The notes beneath the pieces are model-generated. The model ran no database searches, was not told where the DNA came from, and worked only from the letters and a program-made list of their open reading frames with translations. Source: an uncultured bacterium (lineage in GTDB: Bacteria; Krumholzibacteriota; Krumholzibacteriia; Krumholzibacteriales; Krumholzibacteriaceae). Taken from it: DNA of 64,000 nt. Within the stretch, counting starts at the first letter, position 1. Every line of letters starts with the position of its first letter. This document shows positions 3,997 through 58,018 of this stretch, piece by piece. Made by a program: the position numbers and the translations under genes. Where the stretch lies: the NCBI GenBank assembly GCA_963813815.1, contig CAWFAD010000012.1, positions 58,142-122,141 of the forward strand. The letters run 5' to 3'.

Positions 3997-4094
3997 TGGC
4001 GGGAATGTGTGGGAATCGAACCCACCCCGGATGGTTTTAGCACCCGGCGGAAGGATTTGAAGTCCTCGAGGTCCACCAGAACCCATCCATTCCC
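3997..4094 (-). tRNA. selC: tRNA-Sec (anticodon UCA), selC
   Basis: The minus-strand sequence is GGGAATGGATGGGTTCTGGTGGACCTCGAGGACTTCAAATCCTTCCGCCGGGTGCTAAAACCATCCGGGGTGGGTTCGATTCCCACACATTCCCGCCA. The anticodon loop CTTCAAATC matches E. coli selC, with UCA reading UGA. It has a long variable arm, a 7 bp acceptor stem GGGAATG/CATTCCC and a T-loop GGTTCGATTCC. It is 98 nt, longer than a canonical tRNA. Confidence 0.7.
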
Positions 4095-12578: not shown

Positions 12579-13762
12579 TACTCTCTCACCCCGTAGAAGA
12601 TATAATCTTCCTGCCGGATCGGCGCGCCGGAAGCGACGAGCTCCTCCGTTTTCGCGTACATCTTGATGAAGTCTTCCGGCGTAACGTCGCGGCCGGCGAA
12701 TCCCGCGAGGAAATTGGTGATCGCCGGCTTCTGCTTCTGCTCATAGAGCGCCGCGCGGATCTCGCTCGCCACCGGCCCGCCGGGACCGCCGTACGATATC
12801 GCCCGGTCGATAACGATGAGCTTTTTCACGCCCTTCACCGCGTCGCGGAGCTCGTCGAACGGAAACGGGCGCCAGAGGCGAAGCCGTATCTGCCCGACCG
12901 GCTTTCCCTGCTCGCGAAGGCGGTCGACCGCGATCGACGCGGTCTCCCCGAAGCTTCCCATCGTGACGATCGCCGTCTCGGCTCCGTCCATCTTGTAGGT
13001 TTCAACCGACTTGTACGCGCGACCGGTGATCTTCGCGATCTCGTCCCACGCCTTCATGATGACCGGCCTCGCGGCGAGGAGCGCCGCGTCCTGCGCCTTT
13101 TTCGTTTCGGCAAAAATGTTCGGAATGCCGAAGGCGCCCAGCGTGACGGGAGCGTCGGGAGTGAGCACGTTGACCGGTTTGAAGGGAGGAAGGTAACGCG
13201 CGGCCTGCTCCTTGTCCCAGTACTCGATGGCCTCGATGACGTGCGTCACGATGAACCCGTCGATGTTGATCATGACCGGTATCGAGACCGCCGGATCTTC
13301 GGCGACGCGAAAGGCGTAGAGCACGTGGTCGAAGAGCTCCTGCCCGTTGTCGGCGAACACCTGTATCCAGCCGCAGTCGCGCACCGACATCACGTCGGTG
13401 TGATCGTTCCAGATGCTCAGGGGTCCCGAAAGCGAGCGGTTCGCGAGGATCATCACGATCGGGAGCCGCAGGCTCGCCGCGATGAACACGATCTCGTTCA
13501 TGAGGGCGAGCCCCTGCGCGCTCGTGCAGGTGAAGGTGCGCGCCCCCATCGCGGAGGAGCCGCAGCACACGCTCATCGCCGAATGTTCCGATTCGACCGG
13601 TATGAACTCGGCGTCGAGCTCTCCCTCGGCGACGAGCTCGGCGAGGTGCTCGACGATGTGCGTCTGCGGGGTGATCGGATACGCCGCGACGACGTCGACG
13701 TTCGCCAGGGCGACCGCCTCCGCCGCGGCGATCGAGTTTTCGATTCCGACGCGTTTCGGCAT
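12578..13762 (-). CDS. porA: Pyruvate/2-oxoacid:ferredoxin oxidoreductase alpha subunit
   Basis: The 394 aa protein begins [34 protein letters not shown] and has the typical POR alpha domains I and III. Confidence 0.85.
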
Positions 13763-16439: not shown

Positions 16440-18934
16440 ATGCCGAAAAAGAGCGCATTACGCCTTCCGCTCGCGGCCGCGATCCGGCCCTGCGCCGCCG
16501 TCGCCGCTCTGGCCATCGCCGCCGCGCCGGGGCCGCTTTTCGCCGTGGGCCACGCGCGGGATATCCGTTTCACGCAGATCTCCATCGAACAGGGGCTCTC
16601 GCAGAGCATCGTCGAGTGCATCATCCAGGACCGGCGCGGATTCATATGGATGGCCACCGAGGACGGGCTCAACAAGTTCGACGGGTACGATTTCACGATT
16701 CTCCGCCACGATCCCGACGATCCGAACAGCCTCGTCTACAACCAGCTCCTCTCCCTCTGCGAGGACCGCGACGGCCGCATATGGATCGGAACGTTCCAGG
16801 GCGGCCTCAACCGCTACGATCCCGCGACGAGGCGCTTTACCCTCTACACGCACGCGATCGGCGATTCCACGAGCATCAGCCACAATTCGATAAACGCGAT
16901 CGTCGATACGAAGGCCGGGGACCTCTGGATCGGCACCGATAACGGGCTCAACCGCTACGAGCGCCGAACGGATTCCTTCACCCGCTTTTACGGCGACTCG
17001 ACCGGCGAGAACGGACCCGGCCACAGCGGAATCCGCTGCATCCTCGAGGATCGCGGCGGCGGGGTCTGGATCGGCACGAACGGCGGCGGCCTCAGCCGTT
17101 ACGACCCGGCGAGCGGCCGATGGAGGCGCTACGCGCACGATCCCGGCGATCCCGGAAGCCTCAGCCACAACACGGTGCGCGCGATCCGCGAGGACCATGA
17201 GGGCGCGCTCTGGGTCGGCACCGTCGGCGGCGGACTCAACCGGCTCGACCGCCGGACGGATCGCTTCACCCGCTACCGGCACGACCAGGACGATCCGAAG
17301 AGTCTCGCTCACGATCAGGTGTTCGATATCCTCGAGGACCGCACAGGCGCCCTTTGGATCGGCACCAACGGCGGAGGGCTCGACCTCTTCGATCGCGAGA
17401 CCGGCGGTTTCATTCACTATCGGAACGATCCGAACGATCCGAACAGCTTGAGCTTCGACGAGATTCACGACATCTTCGAGGATCGATCGGGGATTCTGTG
17501 GCTCGGCACCTACGGGGGCGGGGCGAACAAGTTCGACACGAAGCGAAAGAGCTTCGTTCTCTACCGCCCGAATCCGGCGGATCCGGCGAGCGGGCTCAGC
17601 GCCGAGATCGTGTGGTCGATCAGCGAGGACGAGCGGGGAATCCTGTGGATCGGCACGCACGGAGGCGGGCTCAACCGCCTCGACCGCGCAACCGGGCGCT
17701 ACCGGCACTACCGCCACGATCCGGGCGATCCAACGAGCCTGAGCTCCGACATTGTGCGGATCGTGTACCGGGACCGTTCCGGAGCCTTCTGGATCGGCAC
17801 GCACGGAGGCGGCCTCTGCAGGTTCGACCGCTCGAGCGGCCGCTTCACCGCCTATCGTCACGACCCATCCGATCCGTCGAGCCTGAGCCATGACGAGATC
17901 AGATCGATATACGAGGATCGGCAGGGCGCGCTCTGGCTCGGCACGAACGGCGGCGGTCTCAACCGCATGGACCGCGCGACCGGCGTTTTCCGCCGCTACC
18001 GGTCCGATCCCAATGATTCAACGAGCCTCAGCAACGATTTCGTGCGCGCGATCTACGAGGACGACTCGGGGGGCTTCTGGATCGGCACGCAGGGGGGAGG
18101 GCTCAACCGCCTCGACCGCTCGACGGGCGTATTCACGCCGTTCCGGGCGAACCGGCTCGACGCGGGCGGCATCAGCAACGATTACATCTTCTCCATCTTC
18201 GAGGATTCGCGGCGAGGTATGTGGATCGCCACCTGGGGCGGCGGGTTCAACAGGTTCGACCGGCAGACGGGGACCTTCAGGCACTATACGATGAAGGACG
18301 GCCTCCCCAACAACTCCGTCTACGGCATGCTCGAGGACGAGGACGGCAACCTCTGGCTCAGCACGAACCGCGGGATATCGAGATTCGACCCACGGACGGA
18401 AACCTTCAAGAACTACACCGACGAGGACGGGCTCCAGAGCAACGAGTTCAACGGAGGGGCGTTCTTCAAGAGCCCCGCCGGGGAGATGTTCTTCGGCGGG
18501 ATCCACGGCTTCAACTCTTTCTTTCCGGGGGACATCAGGGACAATTCCTTCATCCCTCCCGTCATCATCACCTCGCTCTCGGTGCTGAACCGGCCGGCGG
18601 AGCTCGACACGCCGATCACGGATATTCATACGCTCCGGCTCTCGTATCGCGATTACCTTTTTTCGTTCGAGTTCGCCGCGCTCGATTTCACGGCGCCGGA
18701 CAAGAATCAATACGCCTACCTGATGGAGGGCCTCGATCGCGATTGGATAGCGACCCCCGCGGGAAGGCGCCACGCGAGCTACACGACCCTGCCCCCGGCC
18801 GCTACGTCTTCAAGGTGAAGGGCTCGAACAACGACGGCGTATGGAACGAGACGCCCGCGACGATATCGATCGTCATCACGCCTCCCTACTGGCGAACGCT
18901 CTGGTTTCGAAAAATGATATACTTTTTTTGCTGA
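16440..18934 (+). pseudogene. Sensor protein with two-component-regulator propeller repeats, Y_Y_Y domain and TM helix. It is frameshifted near 18795, and the reading frame ends inside a foreign low-GC insertion
   Basis: From the internal Met MPKKSALRL there is a signal peptide. More than 12 repeats of the LWIGTxxGGLNRxDRxTGxFxxYRHDPxDPxSL unit follow. At a C5G homopolymer the frame of ORF 16305..18818 moves into ORF 18221..18934. That second frame carries the Y_Y_Y segment GRYVFKVKGSNNDGVWNE and a TM helix ITPPYWRTLWF. Confidence 0.6.
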
Positions 18935-19585
18935 AAGGCTGGCGCCGTTGTACCTGTACCTTCGGTACCATGTCGAATGTGGCATGCTGTTGGCCGGTTA
19001 CAGTGCTTCAAATTCAATGATGATTCATACCACGATCATCAGACATGACCGCGCTGCATAGCCTAGCCACACGTGGTCTGCAGCGGCGTAAGGTCACGCG
19101 AATCAAAAGCACAAAAAATGTGCAACTTTTAGCATCCAGAGGTTTGGATATTTCCACAGTACATAATTGAGGGGATCATCTTCATGCACCACTCTTGGCA
19201 GCCGCAAGGTCATCCCGGGTGGTATCACGCTGCAGTGTGGTACTTATATGATATTACTTTTTTTTGGCTGAAAGGCTGGCGCCGTTGTACCCCTGTACCC
19301 TTTCAGGTACCATGTCCGAATGTGGCATGCTGTTGGCCCGGTTAACCAGTGCTTCAAATTCAATGATGATTCATACCACGATCATCAGACATGACCGCGC
19401 TGCATAGCCTAGCCACACGTGGTGCTGCAGCGGCGTAAGGTCACGCGAATCAACTGCACAAAAAATGTGCAACTTTTGCAGCACCAGAGGTTTGGATATT
19501 TGAGTATAATTAATATTAGAATTAGATATTTTATATTTATATTTATAATTATATTTATCTATTTAATATATTTTTTTTTTTTATA
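18914..19585. repeat. Low-GC (about 40-45%) insertion containing an imperfect tandem duplication of a roughly 250 bp unit, plus an AT-rich low-complexity tail
   Basis: Unit 1 is about 18914..19155 and unit 2 about 19248..19504. Both begin ATGATAT(T)ACTTTTTTTGCTGAAAGGCTGGCGCCGTTGTACC and end GGTTTGGATATTT. They differ by scattered 1-2 nt indels. Each unit has a short hairpin GCACAAAAAATGTGC. The tail at 19505..19585 is TATAATTAATATTAGAATTAGATATTTTATATTTATATTTATAATTATATTTATCTATTTAATATATTTTTTTTTTTT. The flanking DNA is about 68% GC. Confidence 0.6.
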
Positions 19586-20394
19586 CCTCGCCGCCGGCTT
19601 CATGGTCGCCGGGGTCGCGACCGTCTTTTACCGTCGCCGGCTCACCGGCGTCCGGCTCGCCGCCGAGCTCAGGGCGGCGCACAAGGCGCAGATGTCGATC
19701 ATGCCCCAGTCGGATCCGGCGATCGAGGGGTTCGAAATCTCCGGAACCTGCATCCCCGCCTACGAGGTCGGAGGCGATTTCTACGATTACTTCTGGCTCG
19801 GGAAGGATCGCCGCCGCTTCGGCATCGCCGTCGGCGACGTCGCGGGGAAGGCCATGAACGCCGCGATGATATCGGTCATGTCGAGCGGCATGCTCTCCTC
19901 GAAGGTCGATAACGCCGTTTCGGTCGCCGGCCTCATGCGCGACCTCAACGGGCCGCTCTTCAACAAGACCGACGATTACGTGTTCACGGCGCTCTGTCTT
20001 CTCTCGCTCGACGCCGGAGCGAAATCTGGCGTCTTACAGCGTCGCCGGATTCAACAACCCCATTCTCAAATCCCGCGCGGGCGTGCGTTCGCTCCCCGGA
20101 CGGGGACCGCAGTTCCCCCTCGGGAGCCTCGAGAACATCGCCTACGAGGAGACGGCCCTGCGGCTCGAACGTGGAGACGTTCTCCTTGTGTTTTCGGACG
20201 GACTCATCGAGGAGCGGAACAAGGCGGGCGAATTCTTCGGCCTCGAGCGCCTGCGCGCGCTTCTCGAGACCCTCGACACGGCGGGCATGACGGCGCGCGG
20301 GATCAAGGAGTCGATCGTCTCGGAGGTGCTCGCCTTCGCCGGAAAGCGGCGCCATGACGACGACATCACGCTCGTCGTCGTGAAGGCCGCCTAA
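19586..20394 (+). pseudogene. PP2C-family (SpoIIE/RsbU-like) Ser/Thr phosphatase domain. The 5' end is truncated by the insertion and there is a +1 frameshift near 20030. It is probably the C-terminal part of the upstream sensor gene
   Basis: Frame of ORF 19419..20357 reads LAAGFMVAGVATVFYRRRL (a TM helix) then AELRAAHKAQMSIMPQSD ... GGDFYDYFWL ... GIAVGDVAGKAMNAAM. It then shifts into ORF 20083..20394, which reads SYSVAGFNNPILKSRAGVRSLPGRG ... VLLVFSDGLIEERN ... DDITLVVVKAA. Confidence 0.6.
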
Positions 20395-22279: not shown

Positions 22280-25200
22280 ATGAAAAAGGTGTTAGCCCTC
22301 GTGATCGGCGTCGGCCTCATTGCCCTGCTCATCGGCTCGGTCGCAGCCCGCGAAATTGCGAATCCCGGCAAGCGTCCCGTGAGAGATTGGTCGAGCGATG
22401 AGTCGCTCGATCTCGTCGATCCGGGTCTGCGCGGCCTCTACGAGACCGCCGCCGCGGATACGTACTGCATGGTCTGGTACACCTTTGAGACCAACAACTG
22501 GATGGGTTGGACCCCGATCGACAACACGGCTCAGGTGGATACGTTTTTCCACGTGGACGACTTCGCCGGCCTCGGCACCTCCTGGACTCCGCTCGAGGGC
22601 TTGAAGTCGATGTGGTGCGGAGCCGAAGAGGACCTTGATGATCCGTACATGTGCTCGTGGGAGTACGCCCCTGGCTACGGCAACTACTGGAACCAGATGC
22701 TGACGAGCGATCCGTTCGCCTTCCAAGGCACGATCAGCTTCACGTATACGATCAGGTGGGATTCGGAGCCCGGATACGATTACACTCGGATCGAGTACGA
22801 CGCTGGCGGCGGCAGCTGGGTGGAGCTTGCTGAGTTCGACGACCTCGGCGACAGCACGGGAACCGTTCTCGTGTACACGACGCAGGCTCGGACGAAGCTT
22901 CGCTTCCACTTCACGGCCGACGGCGCCTGGAGCGATCAGGACGGCCTGTGGAACACGAACGGCGCGTGCGTCGTCGACGCTCTGCGCATTCAGGACGCCG
23001 CGACGCTCAACCTGTACGAGAACTTCGAGACCGCGGCCGTCGACGCGAAAGACGCGGGGATCTGGCACGCGCGTCCGGAGACTCCATACGGCAGCTTCGC
23101 CGGCCTGTACACCGGCCTGACCGACAAGGATCCGTGCGGCGACAACTTCGGCACGCAGGTCGTGTTCTTCGTCGGGTCGAGCGAGATCAGCACGAGCTAC
23201 CCGGGTCTCTTCGACACTCCGTTCTGCACGGGCCCCGGCGGCACCAGCGCACCGTGCCAGGATGAGGGCATCGTGTCTCCGATCATCGACATGACGATGT
23301 ACTCGACGCTCTGCAACAACGTTCAGGACGGCACCATCCCGTCTACCGATCTGAACCTGCTCGGAGGCGCCATTCTCCGGTTCACCTCGTACCGCGATCT
23401 GCCGCTCTCGAACCTCGTGTTCTACACGTGGTCCGTCCGGTCGATCATCGACGGGTGCCCCGGCCAGTGGGTGGACGATAACTTCGTTTACTACGGCGCC
23501 GACATGGATTACATCTATGGAGGAGCCGGCGACGTGAGCAAGTTCATCGGCGGCAACGATCCGGTGCAGATCAGAATCGGTTGCACGGACATGTGCGACG
23601 CCTGGTACAACACGTACGGCAACTGCGCGGCGCACACTCCGTCGCCCTGGGTCGACAACGTGCGCCTGTACCGGTACAAAACCGCCGGTCCGCAGTGGGG
23701 ATCGCGCGACCTGGATTTCTTCCAGGACAACTTCCCCGAGGCTGAGTACAACATCGAGAGCTACGTCCGCTGCGACGCGGCGAACGACATCTTCGCGGGC
23801 GACAACCCGGTCATCCATCCGGGCGACTCGCTCGTGGTCGATTGCACGTCGATTATCGCGGACGGGCTCAAAGAGGACAACACCTTCGGCGGCGCCTCCG
23901 TGTACATCAACGTGAGAGCCAGCTACATCGGCCCCGCGCCGACGAAACCGGCTCTCAGCGGCGCCGCGCTCGCCGGATCGGTTCTCGTCAACGACGATCC
24001 GGAGACGTACGTGAACTTCAACTACGTGAGCACGAGCGGTGCCTGGACGAAGATTCAGTGCGACACCGCCCGGACGGGCGCCGGCATCGTCGACGGCAAG
24101 TACATGGTCGACCTCAACGACGAGCTCTTCACCCGCGGCTACAAGATCGACTACTACTTCACGGCCACGGACAAGAAGAACGTCACTTCGGCGTACCCGC
24201 GCTACTCGCGCTCGGGCCCGCCGTACTTCGAGTGGACCTGTCTCCCGACGCTCAACACCGACGTGCTCTTCGTAGATGACGGCTACGTCGAGCTGTACTG
24301 GCTGCCGGTCTTCGACGCCGTGCTGGCTCTGCCGGACGCCAAGATCGACATCTACGACGTGAACGCCCCGAGCTCGGGCGTCTCCAACGGTCCGGGAAGC
24401 CGTGCGAAGAACTACCAGCTGAGAAGCACGTACGAGACGATCGTGTGGGATTGCGGCGCCTACGAGTCCGTGACGATCAGCGAGGGCACGGCCCACAGCG
24501 ACAAGTCGAACGACTGCCAGATGCTCGTCGACTGGATGAGCCTCTCGGAGCACCAGTGCGGCCTCTGGGTCTGCGGCGACGACATCGCCTTCGACCTGGA
24601 CGGCGCGGCCGGCGGCTCCGCGCTTCTCCTCATGAGCTCCTGGTGCGGCGTTGACTACGTCGCGACGAGCTACTTCGAAGAGACGGGCGGCCGGTTGAGC
24701 GGCGGCGTCGTGACGCCGCTTCTCACGGGCAACACCGACTCGGGCATCTTCGTTCACAGCGGCGTGCCCGACAAGCTGTACGCCTCCGGCGCCTGCTTCA
24801 TCATCAACCAGTTCGACTGCCTCGAGAAGACGGCCGGCGGCAAGTACGCTCTGAGCTACCCTGCGTATCTCGGAACGAACTACTACGGCGCCATCTCGAA
24901 GGCGACCACGAACACGAGCGGGTTCCCGGTCCGCACCATGTGGTTCGGATTCAGCTACGCGTTTGTTCGTGACGACGTCAACACGGCTCCGATGGACAAG
25001 TTCGAGATCGCGAACGACGTTCTCGTCTGGATGCAGAACGAGACGAACCTCGTGATTTCGGGCAACGAGACTCCGTCGGCCTACGCGCTCGCGCAGAACT
25101 TCCCGAACCCCTTCAACCCGTCGACGACCATCCGGATCGACATGCGGGAGAAGGGCTTTGTGACGTTGAAGATCTACAACGTCGCCGGGCAGCTCGTGCG

Positions 25201-25354
25201 CACGCTCGTTGACGGCGTGAAGGATGCGGGTTCCTACAACATCGCCTGGGACGGCATGAACGACCGTGGCGGCGCTGTGGCGAGCGGCATCTACTTCTAC
25301 AAGATGGAGACCAAGGACTTCAGCCAGACGAAGAAGATGGTCATGCTGCGGTAG
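22280..25354 (+). CDS. Large secreted protein (1024 aa) with a C-terminal T9SS (Por secretion) sorting domain
   Basis: A strong SD (AAGGGGGG) precedes the ATG at 22280. A signal peptide MKKVLALVIGVGLIALLIGSVAA follows. The C-terminus FPNPFNPSTTIRIDMREKGFVTLKIYNVAGQLVRTLVDGVKDAGSYNIAWDGMNDRGGAVASGIYFYKMETKDFSQTKKMVMLR matches the T9SS CTD (TIGR04183-like). The central domains are not assignable from sequence. Confidence 0.75.
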   Translation: MKKVLALVIGVGLIALLIGSVAAREIANPGKRPVRDWSSDESLDLVDPGLRGLYETAAADTYCMVWYTFETNNWMGWTPIDNTAQVDTFFHVDDFAGLGTSWTPLEGLKSMWCGAEEDLDDPYMCSWEYAPGYGNYWNQMLTSDPFAFQGTISFTYTIRWDSEPGYDYTRIEYDAGGGSWVELAEFDDLGDSTGTVLVYTTQARTKLRFHFTADGAWSDQDGLWNTNGACVVDALRIQDAATLNLYENFETAAVDAKDAGIWHARPETPYGSFAGLYTGLTDKDPCGDNFGTQVVFFVGSSEISTSYPGLFDTPFCTGPGGTSAPCQDEGIVSPIIDMTMYSTLCNNVQDGTIPSTDLNLLGGAILRFTSYRDLPLSNLVFYTWSVRSIIDGCPGQWVDDNFVYYGADMDYIYGGAGDVSKFIGGNDPVQIRIGCTDMCDAWYNTYGNCAAHTPSPWVDNVRLYRYKTAGPQWGSRDLDFFQDNFPEAEYNIESYVRCDAANDIFAGDNPVIHPGDSLVVDCTSIIADGLKEDNTFGGASVYINVRASYIGPAPTKPALSGAALAGSVLVNDDPETYVNFNYVSTSGAWTKIQCDTARTGAGIVDGKYMVDLNDELFTRGYKIDYYFTATDKKNVTSAYPRYSRSGPPYFEWTCLPTLNTDVLFVDDGYVELYWLPVFDAVLALPDAKIDIYDVNAPSSGVSNGPGSRAKNYQLRSTYETIVWDCGAYESVTISEGTAHSDKSNDCQMLVDWMSLSEHQCGLWVCGDDIAFDLDGAAGGSALLLMSSWCGVDYVATSYFEETGGRLSGGVVTPLLTGNTDSGIFVHSGVPDKLYASGACFIINQFDCLEKTAGGKYALSYPAYLGTNYYGAISKATTNTSGFPVRTMWFGFSYAFVRDDVNTAPMDKFEIANDVLVWMQNETNLVISGNETPSAYALAQNFPNPFNPSTTIRIDMREKGFVTLKIYNVAGQLVRTLVDGVKDAGSYNIAWDGMNDRGGAVASGIYFYKMETKDFSQTKKMVMLR

Positions 25355-25382: not shown

Positions 25383-25415
25383 AAAACGGCAGCCCATTCA
25401 CTGGGCTGCCGTTTT
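25383..25415. terminator. Bidirectional rho-independent terminator hairpin between the convergent T9SS cargo gene and the kinase gene
   Basis: AAAACGGCAGCCC-attcact-GGGCTGCCGTTTT is a perfect 13 bp stem flanked by A and T runs. It overlaps the last codons of the kinase at 25398. Confidence 0.5.
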
Positions 25416-27773
25416 CACATCCGCTTCTGCTCCGGGGAAACCGATGCGGCTCAAAATCTCCCACCAGCGCGGATCGGAACGCAGGCTGTCGAAGTACGGC
25501 TCGCTGTTCATGGACATTATTTGTATTGAGCGCGCCTGCAACGACTTTCTCAGGCAGGCAAATGCATTATCCCTATCGCCGAGCCCTGCGTACACCATGG
25601 CGGCTCCGTAAGGGTCGACGAACGCCTCCGCGGACTCCTTCTCGTACTCACGGAGCTCACGGCGCGCGATCTCGCGCTTCCCGGCGACGGCGTACACGAA
25701 TCCCGTCTGGCCGTCGAAACGGCCGGAGTATTTCGTCTCCAGAGTGTCGCATTGGGCCAATGCCTCGTCGAACTTTCCCTGCGCCGCAAGGCTCGTGGCG
25801 AGAAATATTCGCGAGACGTCGGCCAGCGTCGCCTTCGGCTCCATGGCGATATGCCGCCGCAGAGTGGCGTTGGCGTCGTCGTATCGTTTCGCATAAAAAT
25901 ACGTCCATCCGAGAAAGCTGATCGAATAGGCGGAAGATGCGTCGAGCTCGCACTGACGCTGCGCGAGATCGAGAGCCTCGTCGGTTCTCAACGCGGCCGC
26001 GAGATAGAGGATATAGTTTTTGAGCACCGGGATACTGCTTGGATTGAGCTCCAGGGCCCGTTTGTATTCGGCGTCCGCCGTCGACCAATTCCATTCGAAG
26101 AGGAATTTCGCGAGGGCGAGCGCCCCATGCGCTTCCGCGGACCGCCCGTCGAGCTGCACCGCTTTCTCCGCCGCGCGCAGGGCGTCGGTCGCGATCTCCC
26201 CCGGCGCGGCCTGTCCGTAGACGCATAGCATGCTGAGCGCATCGGCAAGCCCGGCGTTCGCGGGAGCGAAAGCAGGATCTATCTCGATTGCCCGTTGAAA
26301 CAGATCCGCGGCGGCGCGGTTCTTGGCACCGAGCAGCTCCGCGATTCCCCTCAAGTAAGCTTCCATGGCCTCGGGATCGGAGGATCCGACGCCTGCAAGA
26401 ATTTGCCGCTGCTCCGGCGTGAGCTTCGCCTTGATCTCGCGGGCGATCGATTCGGCTATTTCGTTCATCACGATCAGCGCGTCCTGCAGATCCCGGCGAT
26501 AGCTGTTCTGCCAGATCACCCGGTCCCGTTGAGCGCTGTAGAGCTTCGCCGTTATGACCATCCTCCTTCCATCGACGGTCAGCTCCGCCTCGACGAGTCC
26601 CTTCGCTTTGCTTTTTCTGCCGATTTCCTTGAGAGACTCGGCGCTTGCTTCGAATCGCCTCATGGTTCGATTCGAAATGACATTTACGCCGATCGATCCG
26701 AGGCTCACCGCGAGGCGATCGGTGAGACTGGCAGCCAGAAACGCCTTGTCGGGATCCTCCGAGCGATACTCGATGGGCAGCACGCCGATCGAATCTATCC
26801 TTTCGACCTTCGGGGCGAGGAGCGCGAGGCTACCCACTATGATCCCCGAGATGACAACCGCAGCCGCCGCGATGACCGCCGCGCGCTGCCAGGGACGGGC
26901 GCGGCGCCAGACTCGCTTGAGCCCTTTCGCGGGCGCAGCCTTCCCGGCGGGAAGCGCCTCCCGGTCTTTGGCCAGCGCATCGAGGTCGGCAACGAGCTCC
27001 TCCGCCTTCTGATACCTCCGCGCCGGGTCCCTCGCCAGCGCCTTGGCGACGATCCCATCGAGACCGGCGGGGATATCTCCGCCCTCTTTCGCAAGCGACG
27101 GCGCATCCTCGTTCAGAATCGAATACAGCAGCGCCGCTTCGTAGTCCGCCCCAAACGGCATCCGCCCCGACACCATCTCGTACAGCACCACGCCCAACGC
27201 CCAGATGTCGCTTCGATGATCCGCCTCCCTCCCCTGCACCTGCTCCGGCGACATATAGGCCACCGTCCCCATCGTCGTCCCCGTCCGCGTGAGCTTCGTC
27301 GCGCCCGAGACCTTCGCCAAACCAAAGTCCATGAGCATCGGCCTGCCCTCGGCCGTCAGCATCACGTTCGCGGGCTTGATGTCTCGGTGAACGATGCCTT
27401 TGGCGTGGGCAGCGGCGAGGCCATCCCCGATCTGCCGGGCGATCGAGAGCGCCTCATCGAGGGGGAGCGCGCCTTCACCGATACGATCCTTGAGGCTCCG
27501 CCCCTCGATGTGAGCCATAGCAATGAATGTCCGGCCTTCCGCCTCGGCGATCTCGTAGACGGGGCAAATGTTGGGGTGAAGGAGCGCCGCGGCCGCCCGG
27601 GCCTCGTGCACGAGCCGGGCGCGGTCTTCATCGCGAGCTATAGAGTCAGGAGGAAGAAACTTGAGCGCCACGGTCCGGCCGAGGGTGAGATCTTCCGCCC
27701 GATAGACCACGCCCATCCCCCCCTCGCCGAGCTTCGAGAGAACGCGATAGTGTCCTATGGTCCGCCCGATCAT
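25398..27773 (-). CDS. Ser/Thr protein kinase with a TM segment and C-terminal TPR repeats (paralogue 1 of 3)
   Basis: The 791 aa protein begins MIGRTIGHYRVLSKLGEGGMGVVYRAEDLTLGRTVALK and carries HRDIKPANVML, DFGLAK and GTVAYMSPEQ. It has a TM helix AAVIAAAAVVISGIIVGSLALLA and a TPR-like C-terminal half. Confidence 0.85.
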   Translation of the reverse strand: MIGRTIGHYRVLSKLGEGGMGVVYRAEDLTLGRTVALKFLPPDSIARDEDRARLVHEARAAAALLHPNICPVYEIAEAEGRTFIAMAHIEGRSLKDRIGEGALPLDEALSIARQIGDGLAAAHAKGIVHRDIKPANVMLTAEGRPMLMDFGLAKVSGATKLTRTGTTMGTVAYMSPEQVQGREADHRSDIWALGVVLYEMVSGRMPFGADYEAALLYSILNEDAPSLAKEGGDIPAGLDGIVAKALARDPARRYQKAEELVADLDALAKDREALPAGKAAPAKGLKRVWRRARPWQRAAVIAAAAVVISGIIVGSLALLAPKVERIDSIGVLPIEYRSEDPDKAFLAASLTDRLAVSLGSIGVNVISNRTMRRFEASAESLKEIGRKSKAKGLVEAELTVDGRRMVITAKLYSAQRDRVIWQNSYRRDLQDALIVMNEIAESIAREIKAKLTPEQRQILAGVGSSDPEAMEAYLRGIAELLGAKNRAAADLFQRAIEIDPAFAPANAGLADALSMLCVYGQAAPGEIATDALRAAEKAVQLDGRSAEAHGALALAKFLFEWNWSTADAEYKRALELNPSSIPVLKNYILYLAAALRTDEALDLAQRQCELDASSAYSISFLGWTYFYAKRYDDANATLRRHIAMEPKATLADVSRIFLATSLAAQGKFDEALAQCDTLETKYSGRFDGQTGFVYAVAGKREIARRELREYEKESAEAFVDPYGAAMVYAGLGDRDNAFACLRKSLQARSIQIMSMNSEPYFDSLRSDPRWWEILSRIGFPGAEADVKTAAQ

Positions 27774-27809
27774 TTCGCTTGTCCCGCGGCAGAGTGATCG
27801 ATCGCCCTT

Positions 27810-30236
27810 CTACTGTTCCATAATGCCGGCTCTCGCCAGCAACCCTTTGTAGCGCGGATCTCTTTTGAGGAAGACGAGCCAGGGCGTATTGATTCGCCTC
27901 GCAAGATCACGAGGACGATCTGCGTATTCTATCTCGAGAGATGTATACGCTTCAGTGATCCTTCCGAGACAGCAATATGCGAATGCCTTTTTGCCGGCAA
28001 CCTTCTCATGGGCGAGCGCCGATTCTACGTGCGCTCCCTCGCCGAGCCAATAGGAGGCGGCAGCGAGCGTCGATGGACTCCAGTAGCCTCGCGGCGCCAG
28101 AGCGACCACCTCGCGGAAGCATTTCCTCGCCTGGACCGTATCGCCGACATTCACGTACCAGGCTGCCAGAAGGGCCCTGTGATTTTCGTTTACTGCGGCC
28201 GCTATCTCAACATCTCTGAGAGCCTCGCGATACCTGCCTCTTGTCGCGTACACCGAGCTCCGATAGAGGCGGCTGTACACCTCGGCGCTGTCTTCCGCGA
28301 TCGCCCGGGTCAGGTAGACGATCGCGCTGTCCATCATGAAGCAATCGAGAAATATGATCCCGACGCCGCCCGCATACCCGGTGTTCAAGGGATCAAGCAT
28401 CTGCGCGAGCTTCGCTTCGCTCACCGCCTTGTCGCAATCGCCCTCCATCGAGAGGAAAAACGCATAGCTGTTGTGAAACGCCGCCAGGTTCGGATCGAGA
28501 GCGAACGTCCGCTGGAAAAGCTCTTCCGCTGCCGCGGAATCGGCCTCGAAGGAATACTTGTAATCGGCGAGAGCTCCGAGCGCCTCGGGCAGGTTCGGAT
28601 CGAGCGCGAGCGCGCGGTCGATGTTGAGCTTCGCCTTGGGAACGGCCTCCTCGGCCGGGAGGATATCAACCCAGGCATAGACGCTGTAGGCGAATGCGAG
28701 CCCGGCATATGCCTCGGCGAACGTGGAATCGATCGCGACCGCTCTTTCGAGATACTCTATCGCCTTCGATGCACTGTCGACATCCGTCCTGGAACGATAA
28801 CCCATTCCCAACAGGTAGGCTTGCATGGCTTTGGGATTCACGGGGCGCCTCGCCGCAAGCGATGCCCGGCTTCCCGCTCGCATCTCGACGCCAAGCGCAG
28901 TCGCCACCTCACGCGCCACTTCATCGAGACGCTGGTGCAGATTTTGCATGTCACAGCTGAGGGTGCGAGCGTAAAGCTGCCTATCCTTCGCTGCTTCGTA
29001 AACCTGGATGCTCAGCCGCACGGCGTTCCCCGAAAATATGCACGAGCCCGTGATCAACGCTCTTGCATCCACCTTCCGGGAAATCTTGTCCATCGGCAGG
29101 TCGCTCCCCTTGAATTCCATCATCGTCTGCGGTGATCGAATCTGAACTCCTTCGAGGGATCCGAGCGCGCCTGAGAGAACGATTTCGAGCCCATTGATCA
29201 TTTCATCCTTCGATAAATCTCCCGTGAGGTTCTTGAGGGGCAGGATGCCGATCGAGTCGATCGACTCCGCCCCCGGCGATGATATCTTCATAATCCCGAA
29301 GGCGAGGGCCCCCGCGACGATGCAGAGCGCGCCGATAACGGCCGCCCTCTGCCATGGCCGCGACCGGCGCCAGACTCGCTTGAGCCCTTTCGCGGGCGCA
29401 GCCTTCCCGGCGGGAAGCGCCTCCCGGTCTTTGGCCAGCGCATCGAGATCCGCAACAAGCTCCTCCGCCTTCTGATACCTCCGCACCGGGTCCTTCGCGA
29501 GCGCCTTGGCGATGATCCCATCGAGGCCGGCAGGAATGTCTCCGCCCTCCACCGCAAGCGGCTCCGGATCCTCGTTCAATATCGAATACAGCAGCGCCGC
29601 CTCGTAGTCCGCCCCGAACGGCATCCGCCCCGACACCATCTCGTACAGCGCCACGCCCAACGCCCAGATGTCGCTTCGATGATCCGCCTCCCTCCCCTGT
29701 ACCTGCTCCGGCGACATATAGGCCACCGTCCCCATCGTCGTCCCCGTCCGCGTGAGCTTCGTCGCTCCGGAGACCTTCGCCAAACCGAAGTCCATGAGCA
29801 TCGGCCGGCCATCGGCCGTCAGCATCACGTTCGCAGGCTTGATGTCGCGGTGCACGATCCCCTTGGCGTGGGCGGCGGCGAGCGCGTCGGCCGTCTGTCG
29901 GGCGATCGAGAGTGCTTCGTCGAGCGGCATCGGACCCTCGGCGATGCGATCCTTGAGGCTCCGCCCCTCGATGTGGGCCATCGAAATGAACGTGCGCCCA
30001 TCCGCTTCAGCTATCTCGTGAATCGGGCAGATGTTCGGATGAAGAAGCGCCGCGGCGGCCCTCGCCTCGTGCACGAGGCGGGCGCGGTCTTCCTCTCGGG
30101 CCACCGAATCAGGCGGGAGAAACTTGAGCGCCACGGTCCGACCGAGGGTGAGGTCCTCGGCCCGGTAGACCACGCCCATCCCCCCCTCGCCGAGCTTCGA
30201 GAGAATGCGATAGTGGGAGATCTTCTGTCCGATCAT
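27810..30236 (-). CDS. Ser/Thr protein kinase with TM segment and TPR repeats (paralogue 2 of 3)
   Basis: From the internal Met MIGQKISHYRILSKLGEGGMGVVYRAEDLTLGRTVALKFLPPDSVAREEDRARLVHE. The kinase domain is almost identical to paralogues 1 and 3 for about 300 aa. The C-terminal TPR region is divergent. Confidence 0.85.
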   Translation of the reverse strand: MIGQKISHYRILSKLGEGGMGVVYRAEDLTLGRTVALKFLPPDSVAREEDRARLVHEARAAAALLHPNICPIHEIAEADGRTFISMAHIEGRSLKDRIAEGPMPLDEALSIARQTADALAAAHAKGIVHRDIKPANVMLTADGRPMLMDFGLAKVSGATKLTRTGTTMGTVAYMSPEQVQGREADHRSDIWALGVALYEMVSGRMPFGADYEAALLYSILNEDPEPLAVEGGDIPAGLDGIIAKALAKDPVRRYQKAEELVADLDALAKDREALPAGKAAPAKGLKRVWRRSRPWQRAAVIGALCIVAGALAFGIMKISSPGAESIDSIGILPLKNLTGDLSKDEMINGLEIVLSGALGSLEGVQIRSPQTMMEFKGSDLPMDKISRKVDARALITGSCIFSGNAVRLSIQVYEAAKDRQLYARTLSCDMQNLHQRLDEVAREVATALGVEMRAGSRASLAARRPVNPKAMQAYLLGMGYRSRTDVDSASKAIEYLERAVAIDSTFAEAYAGLAFAYSVYAWVDILPAEEAVPKAKLNIDRALALDPNLPEALGALADYKYSFEADSAAAEELFQRTFALDPNLAAFHNSYAFFLSMEGDCDKAVSEAKLAQMLDPLNTGYAGGVGIIFLDCFMMDSAIVYLTRAIAEDSAEVYSRLYRSSVYATRGRYREALRDVEIAAAVNENHRALLAAWYVNVGDTVQARKCFREVVALAPRGYWSPSTLAAASYWLGEGAHVESALAHEKVAGKKAFAYCCLGRITEAYTSLEIEYADRPRDLARRINTPWLVFLKRDPRYKGLLARAGIMEQ

Positions 30237-30247
30237 TCCAAGCGCCT

Positions 30248-33121
30248 TTAGAGCTCGGCCACCCTCTTCTTCGCATCGATGAGCTGCGGCCGGTCCCCAT
30301 CCGCTTCGGACCACATCTCGAGGAACCTGGCGTATTCCTTTTTCGCCTCCGCCGGACGTTTCATCTCTTCGTAGAGCTTGCCGAGCTCGTAGTGCGACAG
30401 AGCGTGCCCGCCGTAGATCCGCAACAATTCCTTGTGCACTTTCGCGGCCTCATCGAAACGTCTCTGCATCGCGTAAACGCGCGCCCGCGCGGTTCGGTAA
30501 TCGATATCGATGTATCCTCCGAATGGAATGCCTCCCCGCTGAAGCTGGTCGAGGAACTTTAGGGCTGTTTTAGGATCGTGGTCCGCCAGCGCGGCGTAGG
30601 CCTCGATCTCGAGCGCATCGTATTGAGCAATTCCACCTTGTTTGCCGGTTTGGCCGGCGAGATTTTTCGCCGCCTCTCGCGCTCCCTTCACATCGCCGAG
30701 CATGGCCAGAGCCCTGCCGAGTGGCCGAGGGTAATCGTTCATCGTGTCGGACGACGCCCATTGCCGATACAGGTCGCAAACCTCCTGAGGCCGCTCCATG
30801 GCGATCAGCATGCGAAACTCGGGCATGTCCATATCGGGCAAAACGGTGTATTCCCGAATCAAGTCGCGGGCCTTTCGATATTGGCCCTTTTCAACGTAAA
30901 GGGACGCGAGACACATATCGAAAGGACTCAGAACGATCAGTTCCCATCGTCTGCGCGGACCAATATTGCTCTGGCCGAGGATCTCTTCGAGAATATGGAT
31001 TGCTTCAGCTACGTCGCCTCGCTGATACGCGCAGTAGCTCAAAACCGCACGGTTCCACTTGGGATCCAGCTCCAGGGCCTTTTGAAACGCCGCTTCTGCG
31101 CTATCCGGCTTCCCGAGGGCGAGATATCTACGCCCCAGCTCATCCCAGTTATTCGGAACTTCCGGATGTCGTTCCGCCAGCAATCGCGTCGCCCGTAGCG
31201 CTTCCTCCGTTCGCCCCATGCACACAAGCGAAGATACGTACATAGGACCTCCGAAAATCGGATCATCCGGATACAGGCGCAATCCCGTTTCGCAAACCGC
31301 CAGCGCTTCGCCGAATTCCCAAACCATAAACATGTCTGTGAACATATCCCGCATGACTTGGCGATAATCAGGCCAACGAGCGAGAAGCCTCCGGTACGCT
31401 GCAATAATGGCCGTATGCGAGGTCTCGCGCCAGGCTTCCAGCCTCATCCGATCCTTCACGCCAAGATTTTCCCTCAGCATCCACGCTTTATCCGAATATT
31501 CCTTGGACTTTCCCCTTGTGGTGGGCGAAATACCCCCGAACATTTGGTAGGCGTTTGCGAGCTCCATATATGCCAGGGCAAACGTCGAATCCTCTGTGAC
31601 AGCTTTCTCCAACTCAGCGATCGCATCATCTCCACGGTACTCTTCGCACGCGAGCAAACCAGATATATAGTGCTGGTAGGCTCTCAGAGAATTAGTCGTG
31701 ATACTCTCCACCGGCTTCGGCGCGATGGTCGCCTTGACCCCGCAGGCGCTCGCAATCCGCGGAATCGCCTTCGCGATGATCTCATCCGCTATACCCTGAA
31801 GTCCCGATCCCTCCGCATCTCCCGCGCCGACGTTCTGCCCGTTTCGTACATCGACCAGCCTCCAGCTCACGATTCGATTCGGTCCCGTCCGCCCGATCTT
31901 GGCAACGAGGAAGAGCGTCGCCTTGACCTGCCGGGCGAGGTCGAATATCTGGCTGTCATCGATCGCGCCCCGGGGGGAGCCGTAGAGACGGCGGCGAAAA
32001 TCGTGGATCAGCTCGGAGCTTATCACCCGGATGACATCCGCCTCCGTAAGACTGGTGCTCACGAGCTCGGTGAGGGCCGCCGATGTGATGAGACTGTCGG
32101 GAGCATCGATGTCCCGAAAATCCATTACCGCTATCGAAAACGAAGCGGCTTCGGGCTCCCCGTGCCGCATCTGGACTATCGACAGTGCGGCAATGGCTCC
32201 CATGACTATGAGCGATGCGACCGCCGCCGCGCGCTGCCAGGGCCGGGCGCGGCGCCAGACCCGCTTGAGCCCCTTCGCGGGGATCGCCTTGCCCGCGGGC
32301 AGCGCTTCACTGTCCCGCGCCAGGGCCTCAAGATCCGCAACAAGCTCCTCGGCCTTCTGGTATCTCCTCGCCGGATCCTTCGCCAATGCCTTCGCGATGA
32401 TCCCGTCAAGGCCGGCGGGGATGTCGCTCCCCTCTCCCGCAAGGGGCGCGGGATCTTCGTTCAATATCGAGTACAGCAGCGCCGCCTCGTAGTCCGCCCC
32501 GAACGGCAGCTTCCCCGACGTCATCTCGTAGAGCACCACGCCCAACGCCCAGATGTCGCTCCGGTGATCCGCCTCCCTCCCCTGCACCTGCTCCGGCGAC
32601 ATGTACGCCACCGTCCCCATCGTCGTCCCCGTGCGCGTCAGCTTCGTCGTCCCCGAGACCTTCGCCAGCCCGAAGTCCATCAGCATCGGTCGGCCGTCGG
32701 TCGTGAGCATGACGTTGGCGGGCTTTATATCCCGGTGGATGATCCCCTTGGCGTGGGCGGCAGCCAGACCATCTCCTATCTGACGAGCGATCGAGAGCGC
32801 CCCATCCAGGGGAAGCGGTCCCTCTGCGACGCGATCCTTGAGGCTCCGCCCCTCGATGTGGGCCATCGATATGAACGTGCGGCCCTCGGCTTCAGCGATC
32901 TCGTAGATGGGGCAAATGTTGGGGTGAAGGAGCGCCGCGGCCGCCCGGGCCTCGTGCACGAGCCGGGCGCGGTCTTCCTCGCAAGCCACGGAGTCGGGCG
33001 GAAGGAACTTCAGCGCCACCGTCCGGCCGAGGGTGAGATCCTCGGCCCGATAGACCACACCCATCCCCCCCTCGCCGAGCTTCGAGAGAATGCGGTAGTG
33101 GGAAATCGTATTTCCTATCAT
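30248..33121 (-). CDS. Ser/Thr protein kinase with TM segment and TPR repeats (paralogue 3 of 3)
   Basis: From the internal Met MIGNTISHYRILSKLGEGGMGVVYRAEDL ..., giving 957 aa. An alternative start is at 33151. The kinase domain is near-identical to the other two. The C-terminal TPR/sensor region is longer and divergent. Confidence 0.85.
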   Translation of the reverse strand: MIGNTISHYRILSKLGEGGMGVVYRAEDLTLGRTVALKFLPPDSVACEEDRARLVHEARAAAALLHPNICPIYEIAEAEGRTFISMAHIEGRSLKDRVAEGPLPLDGALSIARQIGDGLAAAHAKGIIHRDIKPANVMLTTDGRPMLMDFGLAKVSGTTKLTRTGTTMGTVAYMSPEQVQGREADHRSDIWALGVVLYEMTSGKLPFGADYEAALLYSILNEDPAPLAGEGSDIPAGLDGIIAKALAKDPARRYQKAEELVADLEALARDSEALPAGKAIPAKGLKRVWRRARPWQRAAAVASLIVMGAIAALSIVQMRHGEPEAASFSIAVMDFRDIDAPDSLITSAALTELVSTSLTEADVIRVISSELIHDFRRRLYGSPRGAIDDSQIFDLARQVKATLFLVAKIGRTGPNRIVSWRLVDVRNGQNVGAGDAEGSGLQGIADEIIAKAIPRIASACGVKATIAPKPVESITTNSLRAYQHYISGLLACEEYRGDDAIAELEKAVTEDSTFALAYMELANAYQMFGGISPTTRGKSKEYSDKAWMLRENLGVKDRMRLEAWRETSHTAIIAAYRRLLARWPDYRQVMRDMFTDMFMVWEFGEALAVCETGLRLYPDDPIFGGPMYVSSLVCMGRTEEALRATRLLAERHPEVPNNWDELGRRYLALGKPDSAEAAFQKALELDPKWNRAVLSYCAYQRGDVAEAIHILEEILGQSNIGPRRRWELIVLSPFDMCLASLYVEKGQYRKARDLIREYTVLPDMDMPEFRMLIAMERPQEVCDLYRQWASSDTMNDYPRPLGRALAMLGDVKGAREAAKNLAGQTGKQGGIAQYDALEIEAYAALADHDPKTALKFLDQLQRGGIPFGGYIDIDYRTARARVYAMQRRFDEAAKVHKELLRIYGGHALSHYELGKLYEEMKRPAEAKKEYARFLEMWSEADGDRPQLIDAKKRVAEL

Positions 33122-33193
33122 GCGATAAACCCGAAATGAAAGCCGCTTCACATCGAAAAAAGCGCTGCCGCCGAAATCGGCCCCCGAGCTCCC

Positions 33194-36654: not shown

Positions 36655-37921
36655 TCAGAACGCCTCCTTGACGGCGTCGACGATCTGTTTCGGGGTGATC
36701 GGGTCTCCATCGACGCGGTTCACCCGCCTGATTTCGGCGCGGCATTTCGCCGCGAGCTCGACCTCGCGCGCCATCTGCCCGAGGTTCATTTCGGCGCAGA
36801 TGAACGCCTTGACCTTCCCCGCGATATCGAGTATCTCCTCCGCCGGGAACGGCCAGATCGTCGTCGGCTCGAAGAGACCGACCTTGATTCCCGCCTCGCG
36901 GCACTCCTTGACGGCACGCTTCGCGGACCGGGCGACCCCGCCGTACGCGAAGACGCAGATCTTCGCGTCATCGAGCTCGAACGTCTTCCAGCGCATGATC
37001 TTCGCGCGGTGCCGCTCGATCTTGTCGGTGAGGTGCAGGATGTTCGCCTCGATCTTCTTCGCGTCGTTCGTCGGGAAGCCCGTTTCGTCATGGCAGAGAC
37101 CGGTCACGTTGTACCGGTATCCCGTGCCGAAATTCGCGAGAACCGGGATGCCGTCCTCGTTCTTCGCGTACGGGAGATACTTGCCGGGGAGGAACGGACG
37201 GCTGCTTGCGATTGACGATCCGGACGCTCGAGTGGTCAGGGAGGTACATCCGCTCCGTCATGTGGCCGACGATCTCGTCGAAGAGCAGTATGACGGGGGT
37301 CATGTACGTCTCGGCGAGGTTGAACGCCTCGATCGTCTGCTCGAACATCTCTTGCGCCGAGGATGCGGTGAGGGCGATGACGCCGTGGTCCCCGTGGCTT
37401 CCCCACCGGGCCTGCTGCATGTCCATCTGGGCGGGAAGGGTCGGCGTGCCGGTGTCGGGCCGCCCCGCTGCACGTCGACGACGACGCACGGCACCTCCGC
37501 CATGACCGGCGTGCCCGAGATTCTCCTGCTTGAGGCTGAAGCCGGGACCCGAGGTCGCCGTGAGCGCCTTGGCCCCGGTGAGCGAGGCTCCGATGACGGC
37601 GCCCATCGCCGCGATCTCGTCCTCCATCTGGATGAATTTCCCCCCGACCCGCGGAAGCTTCCTCACGAGGTACTCCGCGATCTCGGAGCTCGGGGTGATC
37701 GGATACCCGGCGAAGAAGCGGCAGCCGGCCCAGATCGCCCCTTCGGCGCAGGCGTCGTTCCCCTGCATCATGACCACCGTGCCGGTCGGACTCTTTGACA
37801 ACGCCGTCGTCTCCTTTTTCGGGTCGCCCCGCCGCGGGGACGCCCCCATACCCGTCTCGACTCCCCGGGGACGGCGAGGGGCAAAAAAATAAGGACCCCC
37901 TCGCGGAGAGTCCTCATTCAA
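36655..37921 (-). pseudogene. 2-oxoacid:ferredoxin oxidoreductase alpha subunit (cluster 2), interrupted by three frameshifts
   Basis: The N-terminal piece MMQGNDACAEGAIWAGCRFFAGYPITPSSEI is in ORF 37088..37921. The middle piece MAEVPCVVVDVQRGGP is in ORF 37300..37503. The C-terminal piece TGLCHDETGFPTNDAKK ... DAVKEAF is in ORF 36655..37107. Together they reconstruct a full alpha subunit. This is either real decay or sequencing errors. Confidence 0.65.

Positions 37922-57940: not shown

Positions 57941-58018
<78 letters not shown>

Follow-up and report, generated by a model that had tools for sequence, protein, structure and literature searches.

A 676-nt block of foreign composition lies between two codons of a sensor-phosphatase gene in the window, i.e. 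the whole 64,000-nucleotide stretch of DNA analysed here, and on balance we read it as a raw, unpolished long-read segment that was probably retained in an error-prone consensus. The insertion is exact to the base, its two repeat copies carry an error signature, the repeat unit is an orphan in the collections searched, and homopolymer frameshifts break genes of the same window. If so, the block does not faithfully represent the organism's consensus genome.

An exact insertion in one host gene

The features on which the argument turns are as follows, by position in the window.

16440 to 18910, plus strand: 5' part of the host gene, with 11 Reg_prop beta-propeller repeats and a Y_Y_Y domain, ending ...TPPYWRTLWFR
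18911 to 19586, plus strand: inserted block, 676 nt (equally 18910 to 19585 if the host Arg codon is CGC)
18911 to 19247, plus strand: unit A, 337 nt, beginning ..ATGATATAC-T7-GCTGAAAGG
19109 to 19123, plus strand: hairpin GCACAAAAAATGTGC (GCACA-AAAAA-TGTGC) in unit A; second copy at 19456 to 19470
19248 to 19501, plus strand: unit B core, the counterpart of 18914 to 19153, stretched by 15 extra bases
19502 to 19586, plus strand: low-complexity tail, 93% A+T, (TTTATA)n-like with period 6, ending T12-ATAC
19587 to 20394, plus strand: 3' part of the host gene, a TM helix followed by a SpoIIE/PP2C phosphatase domain, with the stop codon ending at 20394
18797 to 18798, 20016 to 20017, 37180 to 37192 (POR alpha) and about 46215 (DAO): frameshift sites

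The start of the host gene was taken as the ATG at 16440, within a frame that is open from 16305. Its 5' part matches Reg_prop at E=4.5e-74, and its Y_Y_Y profile is split over two frames (profile positions 2-37 and 37-64), the frame being shifted by 1 nt, between LPP and GRY, in the GG homopolymer at 18797-18798; a second 1-nt frameshift falls at the GG run 20016-20017 in the 3' part. When the two parts are joined, the query aligns with full-length homologues at 54-57% identity and 100% query coverage. The order Reg_prop/Y_Y_Y-TM-SpoIIE is uninterrupted in every homologue, in agreement with the proposal of the first-pass annotation that the block splits a single gene. Since identity to the closest homologues reaches only about 55%, the uninterrupted site is shown at the protein level only. 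At that level, the junction is clean: 14 residues separate WFR from YRRR, in the window and in 11/11 homologues alike, and by this residue count no host base has been lost and none duplicated. The rest of the host gene keeps every invariant residue of the family.

The reading frame across the block can also be followed. The TM helix (LAAGFMVAGVATVF, 19587-19628) lies wholly downstream, as had been suggested, but the upstream peptide WFRKMIYFFC, previously taken to be TM-like, is not a TM segment; the host contributes only WFR, and KMIYFFC is read-through that runs into a stop at 18932-18934. The length of the block is 3n+1.

In composition, the block stands apart. Its GC content is 0.429, against 0.640 for the whole window and 0.625 and 0.649 for the two flanks, so that a low-GC block is indeed present inside the sensor-phosphatase gene at 18911-19586, and an earlier figure of 68% for the flanks was slightly too high. 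The earlier estimate of 40-45% GC describes the block as a whole but none of its separate parts, which measure 0.478 (unit A), 0.484 (unit B core) and 0.071 (tail). In other words, the block consists of two units of ~338 nt arranged head to tail, followed by an A+T-rich end of 85 nt.

Two unequal copies and an A+T-rich tail

The duplication is real, as are the hairpins that had been reported in each copy, but the unit is ~338 nt in length, not ~250. At each unit boundary, (T/A)TAC precedes a T-run, and ATAC is found again at the very end of the block; because the boundaries and the block end share this motif, the block contains complete units only (2.0 in number). The copies at 18914-19153 and 19248-19501 are 92.9% identical over 255 columns and share one 44-mer that is present exactly twice (0 expected in shuffles). 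The four bases are almost equally frequent in unit A (A.255, T.267, G.240, C.237), which carries a complex tail of 94 nt (19154-19247) where unit B has A+T junk instead.

How do the two copies differ? Over 243 shared bases, copy B has gained 15 bases, lost 1 and substituted 2, which amounts to 12 indel events and 2 substitutions; the start-to-start spacing between the copies accordingly drifts from 337 to 348. This pattern fits the earlier description of scattered 1-2 nt indels. The probability of at least 12 indels in 14 events is 7e-11 to 3e-5, assuming that indels are 10-30% of mutational events, and the direction of the indels in copy B is biased (two-sided binomial p=5e-4 by bases, 6e-3 by events). 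Additionally, 11/15 of the bases gained in copy B repeat a neighbouring base. Judged on the sequence, differences of this kind are not evolutionary, unlike those of diverged DNA.

The tail, once described as an 80-bp AT-only run, is A+T-rich but not pure: 6 G/C bases occur in its 85 nt, and its uninterrupted A/T runs measure 33, 26 and 14 nt. The longest such run elsewhere in the 64-kb window is 12 nt, and A/T runs of at least 22 nt are absent from the loci of relatives above 47% GC. After 19501, only the first ~13 nt still follow unit A. Alignment of the A/T skeletons of the tail and of the unit A tail gives p of about 0.01-0.02. The idea that the tail is the unit A tail minus its G/C bases, through basecalling collapse, was tried by dynamic programming with free G/C deletion and is unsupported, with 92/500 shuffles as good.

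Searches for an origin

Neither unit, in six frames, contains an ORF worth testing, so the earlier statement that the block has no transposase holds. Genes for transposases, recombinases or reverse transcriptases are absent within about 10 kb of the block, and transposase-type Pfam domains are absent among the ORFs surveyed around it and elsewhere in the window. The 64-kb window contains no further copy of the unit, and blastn in distant mode returned no match to it in 72,556 plasmids, 50,697 phage records and E. coli genomes; against 783 kb of relatives' loci, only chance matches were found. Exact probes of 25-32 nt, drawn from stretches identical in both copies, were equally silent: 0 matches were obtained for a 32-mer among the contigs of genomes, viruses and metagenomes, for a 26-mer among metagenome contigs (a collection of 241 million records) and for a 25-mer among viral contigs. 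Rfam at E<=1 gave two sub-threshold chance matches, both in the A+T tail, and no tRNA or tmRNA was found in the block.

Neither the block nor the unit has its two ends linked by an inverted pair; the best such pair (I1, 71%) takes in part of the host sequence and stops within unit A. At the right junction the host sequence is not repeated by even one base, i.e. there is no target-site duplication.

Adapter sequences of ONT, PacBio and Illumina, compared by local alignment, did not score above shuffles save for a trivial homopolymer match. The Mu-end flank of rapid kits scored 13, compared with 9.6±1.4 for shuffles, and 7/200 shuffles did as well, which we attribute to chance.

A probable raw long-read segment in a draft consensus

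The combination of indel-dominated, insertion-biased differences with low-complexity junk is typical of raw long reads. The reading that we favour would run as follows. Positions 18911-19586 would be raw sequence, backed by a single read or a handful at most, that stayed in the draft without any polishing; a 676-nt insertion cannot be corrected by reads that lack it, and the block would have been left in that state for this reason. The imperfect duplication would then be one sequence of ~338 nt written twice, with the second copy distorted by insertion-type read errors before collapsing to low-complexity A+T calls, and the real gene would resume at the very next base. The sequencing platform, the behaviour of the assembler and the lack of read support are what we infer here from the sequence.

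The quality of the surrounding consensus bears on this reading. The window resembles an error-prone consensus of long reads, probably derived from a metagenome: a non-exhaustive survey found at least 4 frameshifts at G/C homopolymers in conserved genes. Two of the four are close to the block, no more than 115 nt and 430 nt away, a clustering for which a Poisson estimate from this non-exhaustive survey is roughly 1e-3 to 1e-2, and they fit poor polishing beside a segment that the alignments of most reads fail to cross. It counts against an artefact that the reading frame holds for the 113 nt before the block and the 430 nt after it, so that these immediate flanks are far cleaner than the block. 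As for POR alpha, an intact paralogue of this gene is found at 12581-13762.

There are precedents for such behaviour. Insertion-biased errors have been reported for slowly translocating nanopore reads (PMC8486125), and long-read metagenome assemblers have been found to produce false direct repeats of 88-96% identity, sequences homologous to no read and read-unsupported indels that break ORFs (bioRxiv 10.1101/2025.04.22.649783). The block resembles the artefacts described there for metaFlye and metaMDBG in having a direct repeat a few hundred nucleotides long (about 93% identity here), no counterpart sequence, an abrupt break in composition and single-base indels that break nearby ORFs. It differs from them in that their false repeats mostly copy the genome's own DNA, whereas the unit here is foreign to the 64-kb window. 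Two further points speak against an artefact. A complex, non-repetitive sequence of ~250 nt is hard to obtain twice from signal noise alone, and some DNA of the unit's sequence probably did pass through the sequencer; moreover, a base-exact insertion is the pattern of real events in vivo, not that of read chimeras or ligation artefacts. The first-pass annotation had offered three candidates, of which the noisy duplicated foreign fragment or assembly artefact fits best and the MITE-like element finds no support.

Alternative explanations

That the block is a real element, badly read, is the main rival explanation, one that we entertain only tentatively. It would be a small, non-coding, non-autonomous element, a head-to-tail dimer of the ~338-nt unit, present in a minority of cells or in few reads and hence recorded with raw-read errors; proposed routes of entry are peel-and-paste single-strand transposition (IS200/IS605-like), rolling-circle transposition (IS91/Helitron-like) or integration of a small circle. 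Such an insertion would inactivate the sensor-phosphatase by parting its sensor domains from the TM helix and PP2C domain. The attraction of this explanation lies in a complex sequence of foreign composition, inserted exactly, with host bases neither lost nor duplicated, into a locus that is normally uninterrupted in homologues. The (T/A)TAC and T-run at the unit boundaries, the ATAC at the block end and the count of 2.0 units point the same way, as does the hairpin-rich character of the unit (GCACA-N5-TGTGC), for which RNA fold z-scores are -1.95 on the plus strand and -0.5 on the minus strand, not compelling as structured RNA. Against it, the unit has no second copy in 64 kb, no relative in the collections searched, no Rfam family match and no transposase, recombinase or reverse transcriptase gene within about 10 kb, and a single copy permits no test of end motifs. 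Even so, the error-like differences between the copies and the A+T tail mean that the true sequence is another than the one recorded.

Which known elements would such an insertion resemble? IS200/IS605-derived elements have subterminal imperfect hairpins at both ends and insert 3' of a conserved tetra- or pentanucleotide. The block shares with non-autonomous derivatives of this family (palindrome-associated transposable elements) and with IS91/rolling-circle elements its small size, its lack of coding capacity, its richness in hairpins and its exact insertion with neither terminal inverted repeat nor target-site duplication; the exactness and the lack of both kinds of repeat agree with an IS200/IS605-derived element. 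It is unlike both families in its tandem dimer and A+T microsatellite tail, and in its single copy with no partner transposase in view and error-like copy differences. Of the hairpins present, none can be shown to lie subterminally. The host sequence on the 5' side is TTTCG(A), the units are preceded by (A/T)TAC, and a single copy yields no consensus from which a conserved target tetranucleotide or end motif could be shown. The resemblance to classical MITEs, which had been suggested, is that the block is short, AT-richer than its host, devoid of a transposase and interrupts a gene, but MITEs are multi-copy and have a terminal inverted repeat and a target-site duplication, both of which are absent here, with no second copy in the window or the collections. 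In its boldest form, the proposal is that an uncultured bacterium of the FCB group (Krumholzibacteria/Eisenbacteria-like) has a truly mobile non-coding element of ~338 nt, non-autonomous and of single-strand or rolling-circle type, noisily recorded from a sub-population of cells after a head-to-tail dimer integrated exactly into coding sequence with no target-site duplication, terminal inverted repeat or database relatives; in this form we find it doubtful.

It is improbable that the gene is a pseudogene in decay, with an insertion that is real but old, genuinely diverged tandem copies and real frameshifts nearby. The insertion and two frameshifts do fall within a 1.3-kb stretch of the gene, but identical homopolymer frameshifts occur in housekeeping POR alpha and DAO elsewhere in the window, the rest of the gene keeps its invariant residues, and a 12:2 ratio of indels to substitutions with one-directional bias is not a mutational spectrum.

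Slightly less probable still is laboratory sequence (adapter, barcode, vector, spike-in or control DNA) taken in at library preparation or assembly. A base composition of about 25% each and an orphan unit in natural sequence collections would suit it, but the plasmids, phages and E. coli genomes gave no match, the adapters showed no significant similarity, and the vector or control-DNA origin raised earlier finds no support. A common reagent would also be expected somewhere among the 241 million metagenome records, and adapter chimeras join non-adjacent DNA, whereas the flanks here are adjacent to the base.

Group I introns follow an exon U and end in an intron-final G, and group II introns read GUGYG...AY. 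A self-splicing intron or other RNA-level element removed from the mRNA of a still functional gene would account for exact placement inside coding sequence with no target-site duplication, but we consider it very unlikely indeed, as the boundaries AAAAUG...UAUAC fit neither pattern, that of group II failing at the 5' end, no Rfam group I, group II or ribozyme model matches at E<=1, and a tandem duplicate with an A+T microsatellite is not intron architecture.

Implications

Should some cells truly carry the block, an orphan mobile element lacking target-site duplications would have been sighted for the first time in a poorly sampled lineage, with a recorded sequence that would still need re-determination. 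If, as we favour, it is an artefact, public long-read MAGs hold split genes that pass for pseudogenes and apparently exact insertions that pass for mobile elements. In the present case, annotation would turn one Reg_prop/Y_Y_Y-TM-SpoIIE sensor phosphatase into two or three fragmentary ORFs. Such blocks may be flagged without recourse to reads where indels outnumber substitutions between the copies, base doublings accumulate in one direction and the sequence degenerates to low complexity.

Exact placement of the insertion in a sensor phosphatase gene

The gene for a sensor phosphatase in the window is interrupted by a low-GC block of 676 nt, and the features concerned are as follows.

16305/16440-18910: 5' part of the host gene, 11 Reg_prop propeller repeats and a Y_Y_Y domain
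18911-19247: unit A of the block, 243 nt shared with unit B, then a complex tail of 94 nt
19248-19586: unit B of the block, with A+T junk where unit A has its complex tail
19587-20394: 3' part of the host gene, TM helix and SpoIIE/PP2C phosphatase domain

With both halves joined in silico and two single-base frameshifts repaired, the query matches hundreds of single-polypeptide homologues of the architecture Reg_prop-Y_Y_Y-TM-SpoIIE; the best of these, from Krumholzibacteria, Eisenbacteria, Latescibacteria and KSB1-type MAGs, show 54-57% identity over 100% of the joined query, and in the nine best genomic loci the match is one uninterrupted stretch. Products of four long ORFs of the window have no exact counterpart in the protein and contig collection; by its best hits the source lineage is of the FCB group, Krumholzibacteria/Eisenbacteria-like, and it may be sparsely covered there. 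Aligned with one another, 11 homologues have exactly 14 residues between the conserved WFR and the Y of YRRR. The window reads WFR, block, LAAGFMVAGVATVF (14 residues), YRRR, and because this spacing is kept, the block sits between two adjacent host bases, at ...TTT CGA/CTC... or, equivalently, ...TTT CG/C CTC... (slash, insertion point). No host base is deleted or duplicated there, so there is no target-site duplication, and since 676 is 3n+1, the reading frame is lost. The first-pass annotation was thus right that the block splits one gene, which can now be said to base resolution; of the "TM-like WFRKMIYFFC" that it reported, only WFR belongs to the host, the remaining residues being read-through into the block.

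Composition and repeat architecture

The low GC noted earlier is borne out: 0.429 over the 676 nt (0.478 at 18911-19247, 0.484 at 19248-19501 and 0.071 at 19502-19586) versus 0.62-0.65 in the flanks and a window mean of 0.640. Direct copies at 18914-19153 and 19248-19501 align over 255 columns with 92.9% identity, a 44-mer common to both occurs exactly twice in the window and in none of 100 shuffles, and the hairpin GCACAAAAAATGTGC recurs in each copy (19109-19123 and 19456-19470). Between corresponding segments, the start-to-start spacing widens along the copies from 337 nt to 348 nt, so many small indels must lie between them. Two copies there are, as first described, but the true repeat unit is ∼338 nt rather than ∼250 bp; unit B's A+T junk occupies the position equivalent to the tail of unit A, and the block therefore spans 2.0 units. 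An (A/T)TAC motif lies beside a T-run at every unit boundary and at the block end. The last 85 nt, with a (TTTATA)n-like period, are indeed low-complexity but 93% A+T, not AT-only; they include two stretches of A and T only, 33 and 26 nt long, whereas the longest such stretch elsewhere in the 64 kb is 12 nt.

Differences between the copies

In a global alignment of both units over the 243-nt shared core (the counts leave out the first three bases of unit A, outside the aligned core), 15 bases are present in B only, 1 base in A only, and 2 positions are substituted, i.e. 12 indel events versus 2 substitutions. Duplicated bacterial DNA diverges naturally mainly by substitutions; if indels made up 10-30% of events, the probability of at least 12 among 14 would be 7e-11 to 3e-5. 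The direction is also one-sided (15 bases versus 1, p=5e-4; 11 events versus 1, p=6e-3), which independent mutation of two copies would not yield, and 11 of the 15 B-only bases double an adjacent base (T7 to T8, CC to CCCC, G to GG, A to AA). In other words, copy B renders the sequence of copy A in "stretched" form, and ∼13 nt past the shared core it turns to low-complexity A+T. In nanopore reads, insertion-biased error is tied to slow strand translocation (PMC8486125). Reading the A+T tail as unit A's tail minus its G/C calls was also tried, and the result was not convincing.

An indel-prone consensus and the surrounding genes

The host gene itself carries two single-base frameshifts, at GG 18797-98 (expected GGG, LPPGRY), 113 nt upstream of the block, and at GG 20016-17, 430 nt downstream, so that four ORF fragments are seen in place of two. 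Two further genes, conserved and unrelated to it, are also split at homopolymers.

About 36658-37921, minus strand: 2-oxoacid:ferredoxin oxidoreductase alpha subunit, POR_N 1-184/231, then PFOR_II in another frame
45492-46675, minus strand: DAO-family FAD oxidoreductase in two frames, profile 8-145 and 136-351

The first split, at a C-run (37180-37192), probably reflects an indel error in the consensus; the gene has an intact paralogue at 12581-13762. The second falls at a G-run near 46215 (about 46205-46240; GGGG, expected GGGGG). The 64 kb thus contain at least four frameshifts, every one of them in a G/C run, a pattern characteristic of long-read consensus sequence from modest coverage. The block has two of the four close by, within 115 nt and 430 nt; from the background rate elsewhere, in a non-exhaustive survey, the chance of this is estimated at roughly 1e-3 to 1e-2. 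Polishing would be expected to lose power locally if most reads lack the insertion and so fail to align through it.

Neighbours of the block include acetyl-CoA synthetase, 2-oxoacid:ferredoxin oxidoreductase subunits, a methyltransferase, a Por_Secre_tail secreted protein and Ser/Thr kinases; other features are listed here.

3997-4094, minus strand: tRNA-SeC (anticodon tca), ARAGORN
22283-25351: 1023-aa protein, FlgD_ig and Por_Secre_tail (type IX secretion sorting) domains
25401-33151, minus strand: three paralogous Ser/Thr protein kinase-TPR genes in a row (791, 834, 967 aa)
41007-41082, minus strand: tRNA-Thr (cgt), ARAGORN
57941-58016, minus strand: tRNA-Phe (gaa), ARAGORN
58062-58778, minus strand: PAS-HisKA ORF without a HATPase_c domain, ending about 45 nt before tRNA-Phe

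The kinase-TPR trio adjoins the PP2C-type sensor phosphatase and the FlgD_ig/Por_Secre_tail protein, making a dense signalling neighbourhood. The tRNA-SeC suggests that the organism uses selenoproteins, and the PAS-HisKA ORF represents either a histidine kinase cut short or a further defect of the assembly.

Searches for relatives of the block

Exact queries of 25-32 nt were taken from parts identical in both copies: a 32-mer gave 0 matches in genome, viral and metagenome contig collections, a 26-mer 0 in the metagenome collection and a 25-mer 0 in the viral collection. Nor is there a second copy within the 64-kb window. Neither unit has an ORF in any frame, no tRNA or tmRNA lies in the block, and genes for a transposase, recombinase or reverse transcriptase are absent within about 10 kb of it, in agreement with the earlier remark on transposases.

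Origin of the block

The likeliest explanation, to which we give somewhat better than an even chance, is an unpolished raw-read segment kept in the contig: a segment from one or very few reads would have entered the draft and survived polishing. Consensus polishers are not known to take out or mend insertions of several hundred bases that are missing from the other reads. Such a history would account for the clean conserved flanks, a raw-read-like error level limited to the block, residual indels clustered beside it and the orphan status of its sequence; several of its steps, namely long-read data, low read support and assembler behaviour, are inferred. In a recent survey, long-read metagenome assemblers were found to produce false direct repeats of 88-96% identity, sequences without homology to any input read and read-unsupported indels that corrupt ORFs (bioRxiv 10.1101/2025.04.22.649783). 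Among the options first proposed, a noisy fragment or assembly artefact is best supported, by the error signature, the orphan status and the indel-prone consensus.

The main rival, less likely but quite possible, is a real insertion in one or a few cells, a dimer of a ∼338-nt non-coding element recorded with raw-read errors. A complex 250-nt sequence present twice and exactly placed has as its simplest source a molecule that truly carried such DNA, and read chimeras and ligation artefacts are not known to rejoin adjacent bases. The element would insert with neither inverted repeats nor a target-site duplication, and single-strand transposition of the IS200/IS605 type, rolling-circle transposition and small-circle integration are candidate mechanisms. 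The block has no terminal inverted repeats and so fails as a classical MITE in this as well as in target-site duplication; the label "MITE-like" is not supported. Even if the insertion is real, neither the "imperfect" duplication nor the A+T tail is biological.

A decaying pseudogene is very improbable; the copies differ mainly by indels. Laboratory DNA is likewise very improbable: blastn against 50,697 phage records, 72,556 plasmids and 5,426 E. coli genomes found nothing, which speaks against the vector or control DNA raised earlier, and local alignment to a set of sequencing-adapter sequences was no better than with shuffles. An intron has next to no probability, as the boundaries lack group I and group II splice-site consensus and Rfam at E<=1 gave no family except two sub-threshold chance matches in the A+T tail, which rules out any recognisable self-cleaving ribozyme or intron of either group.
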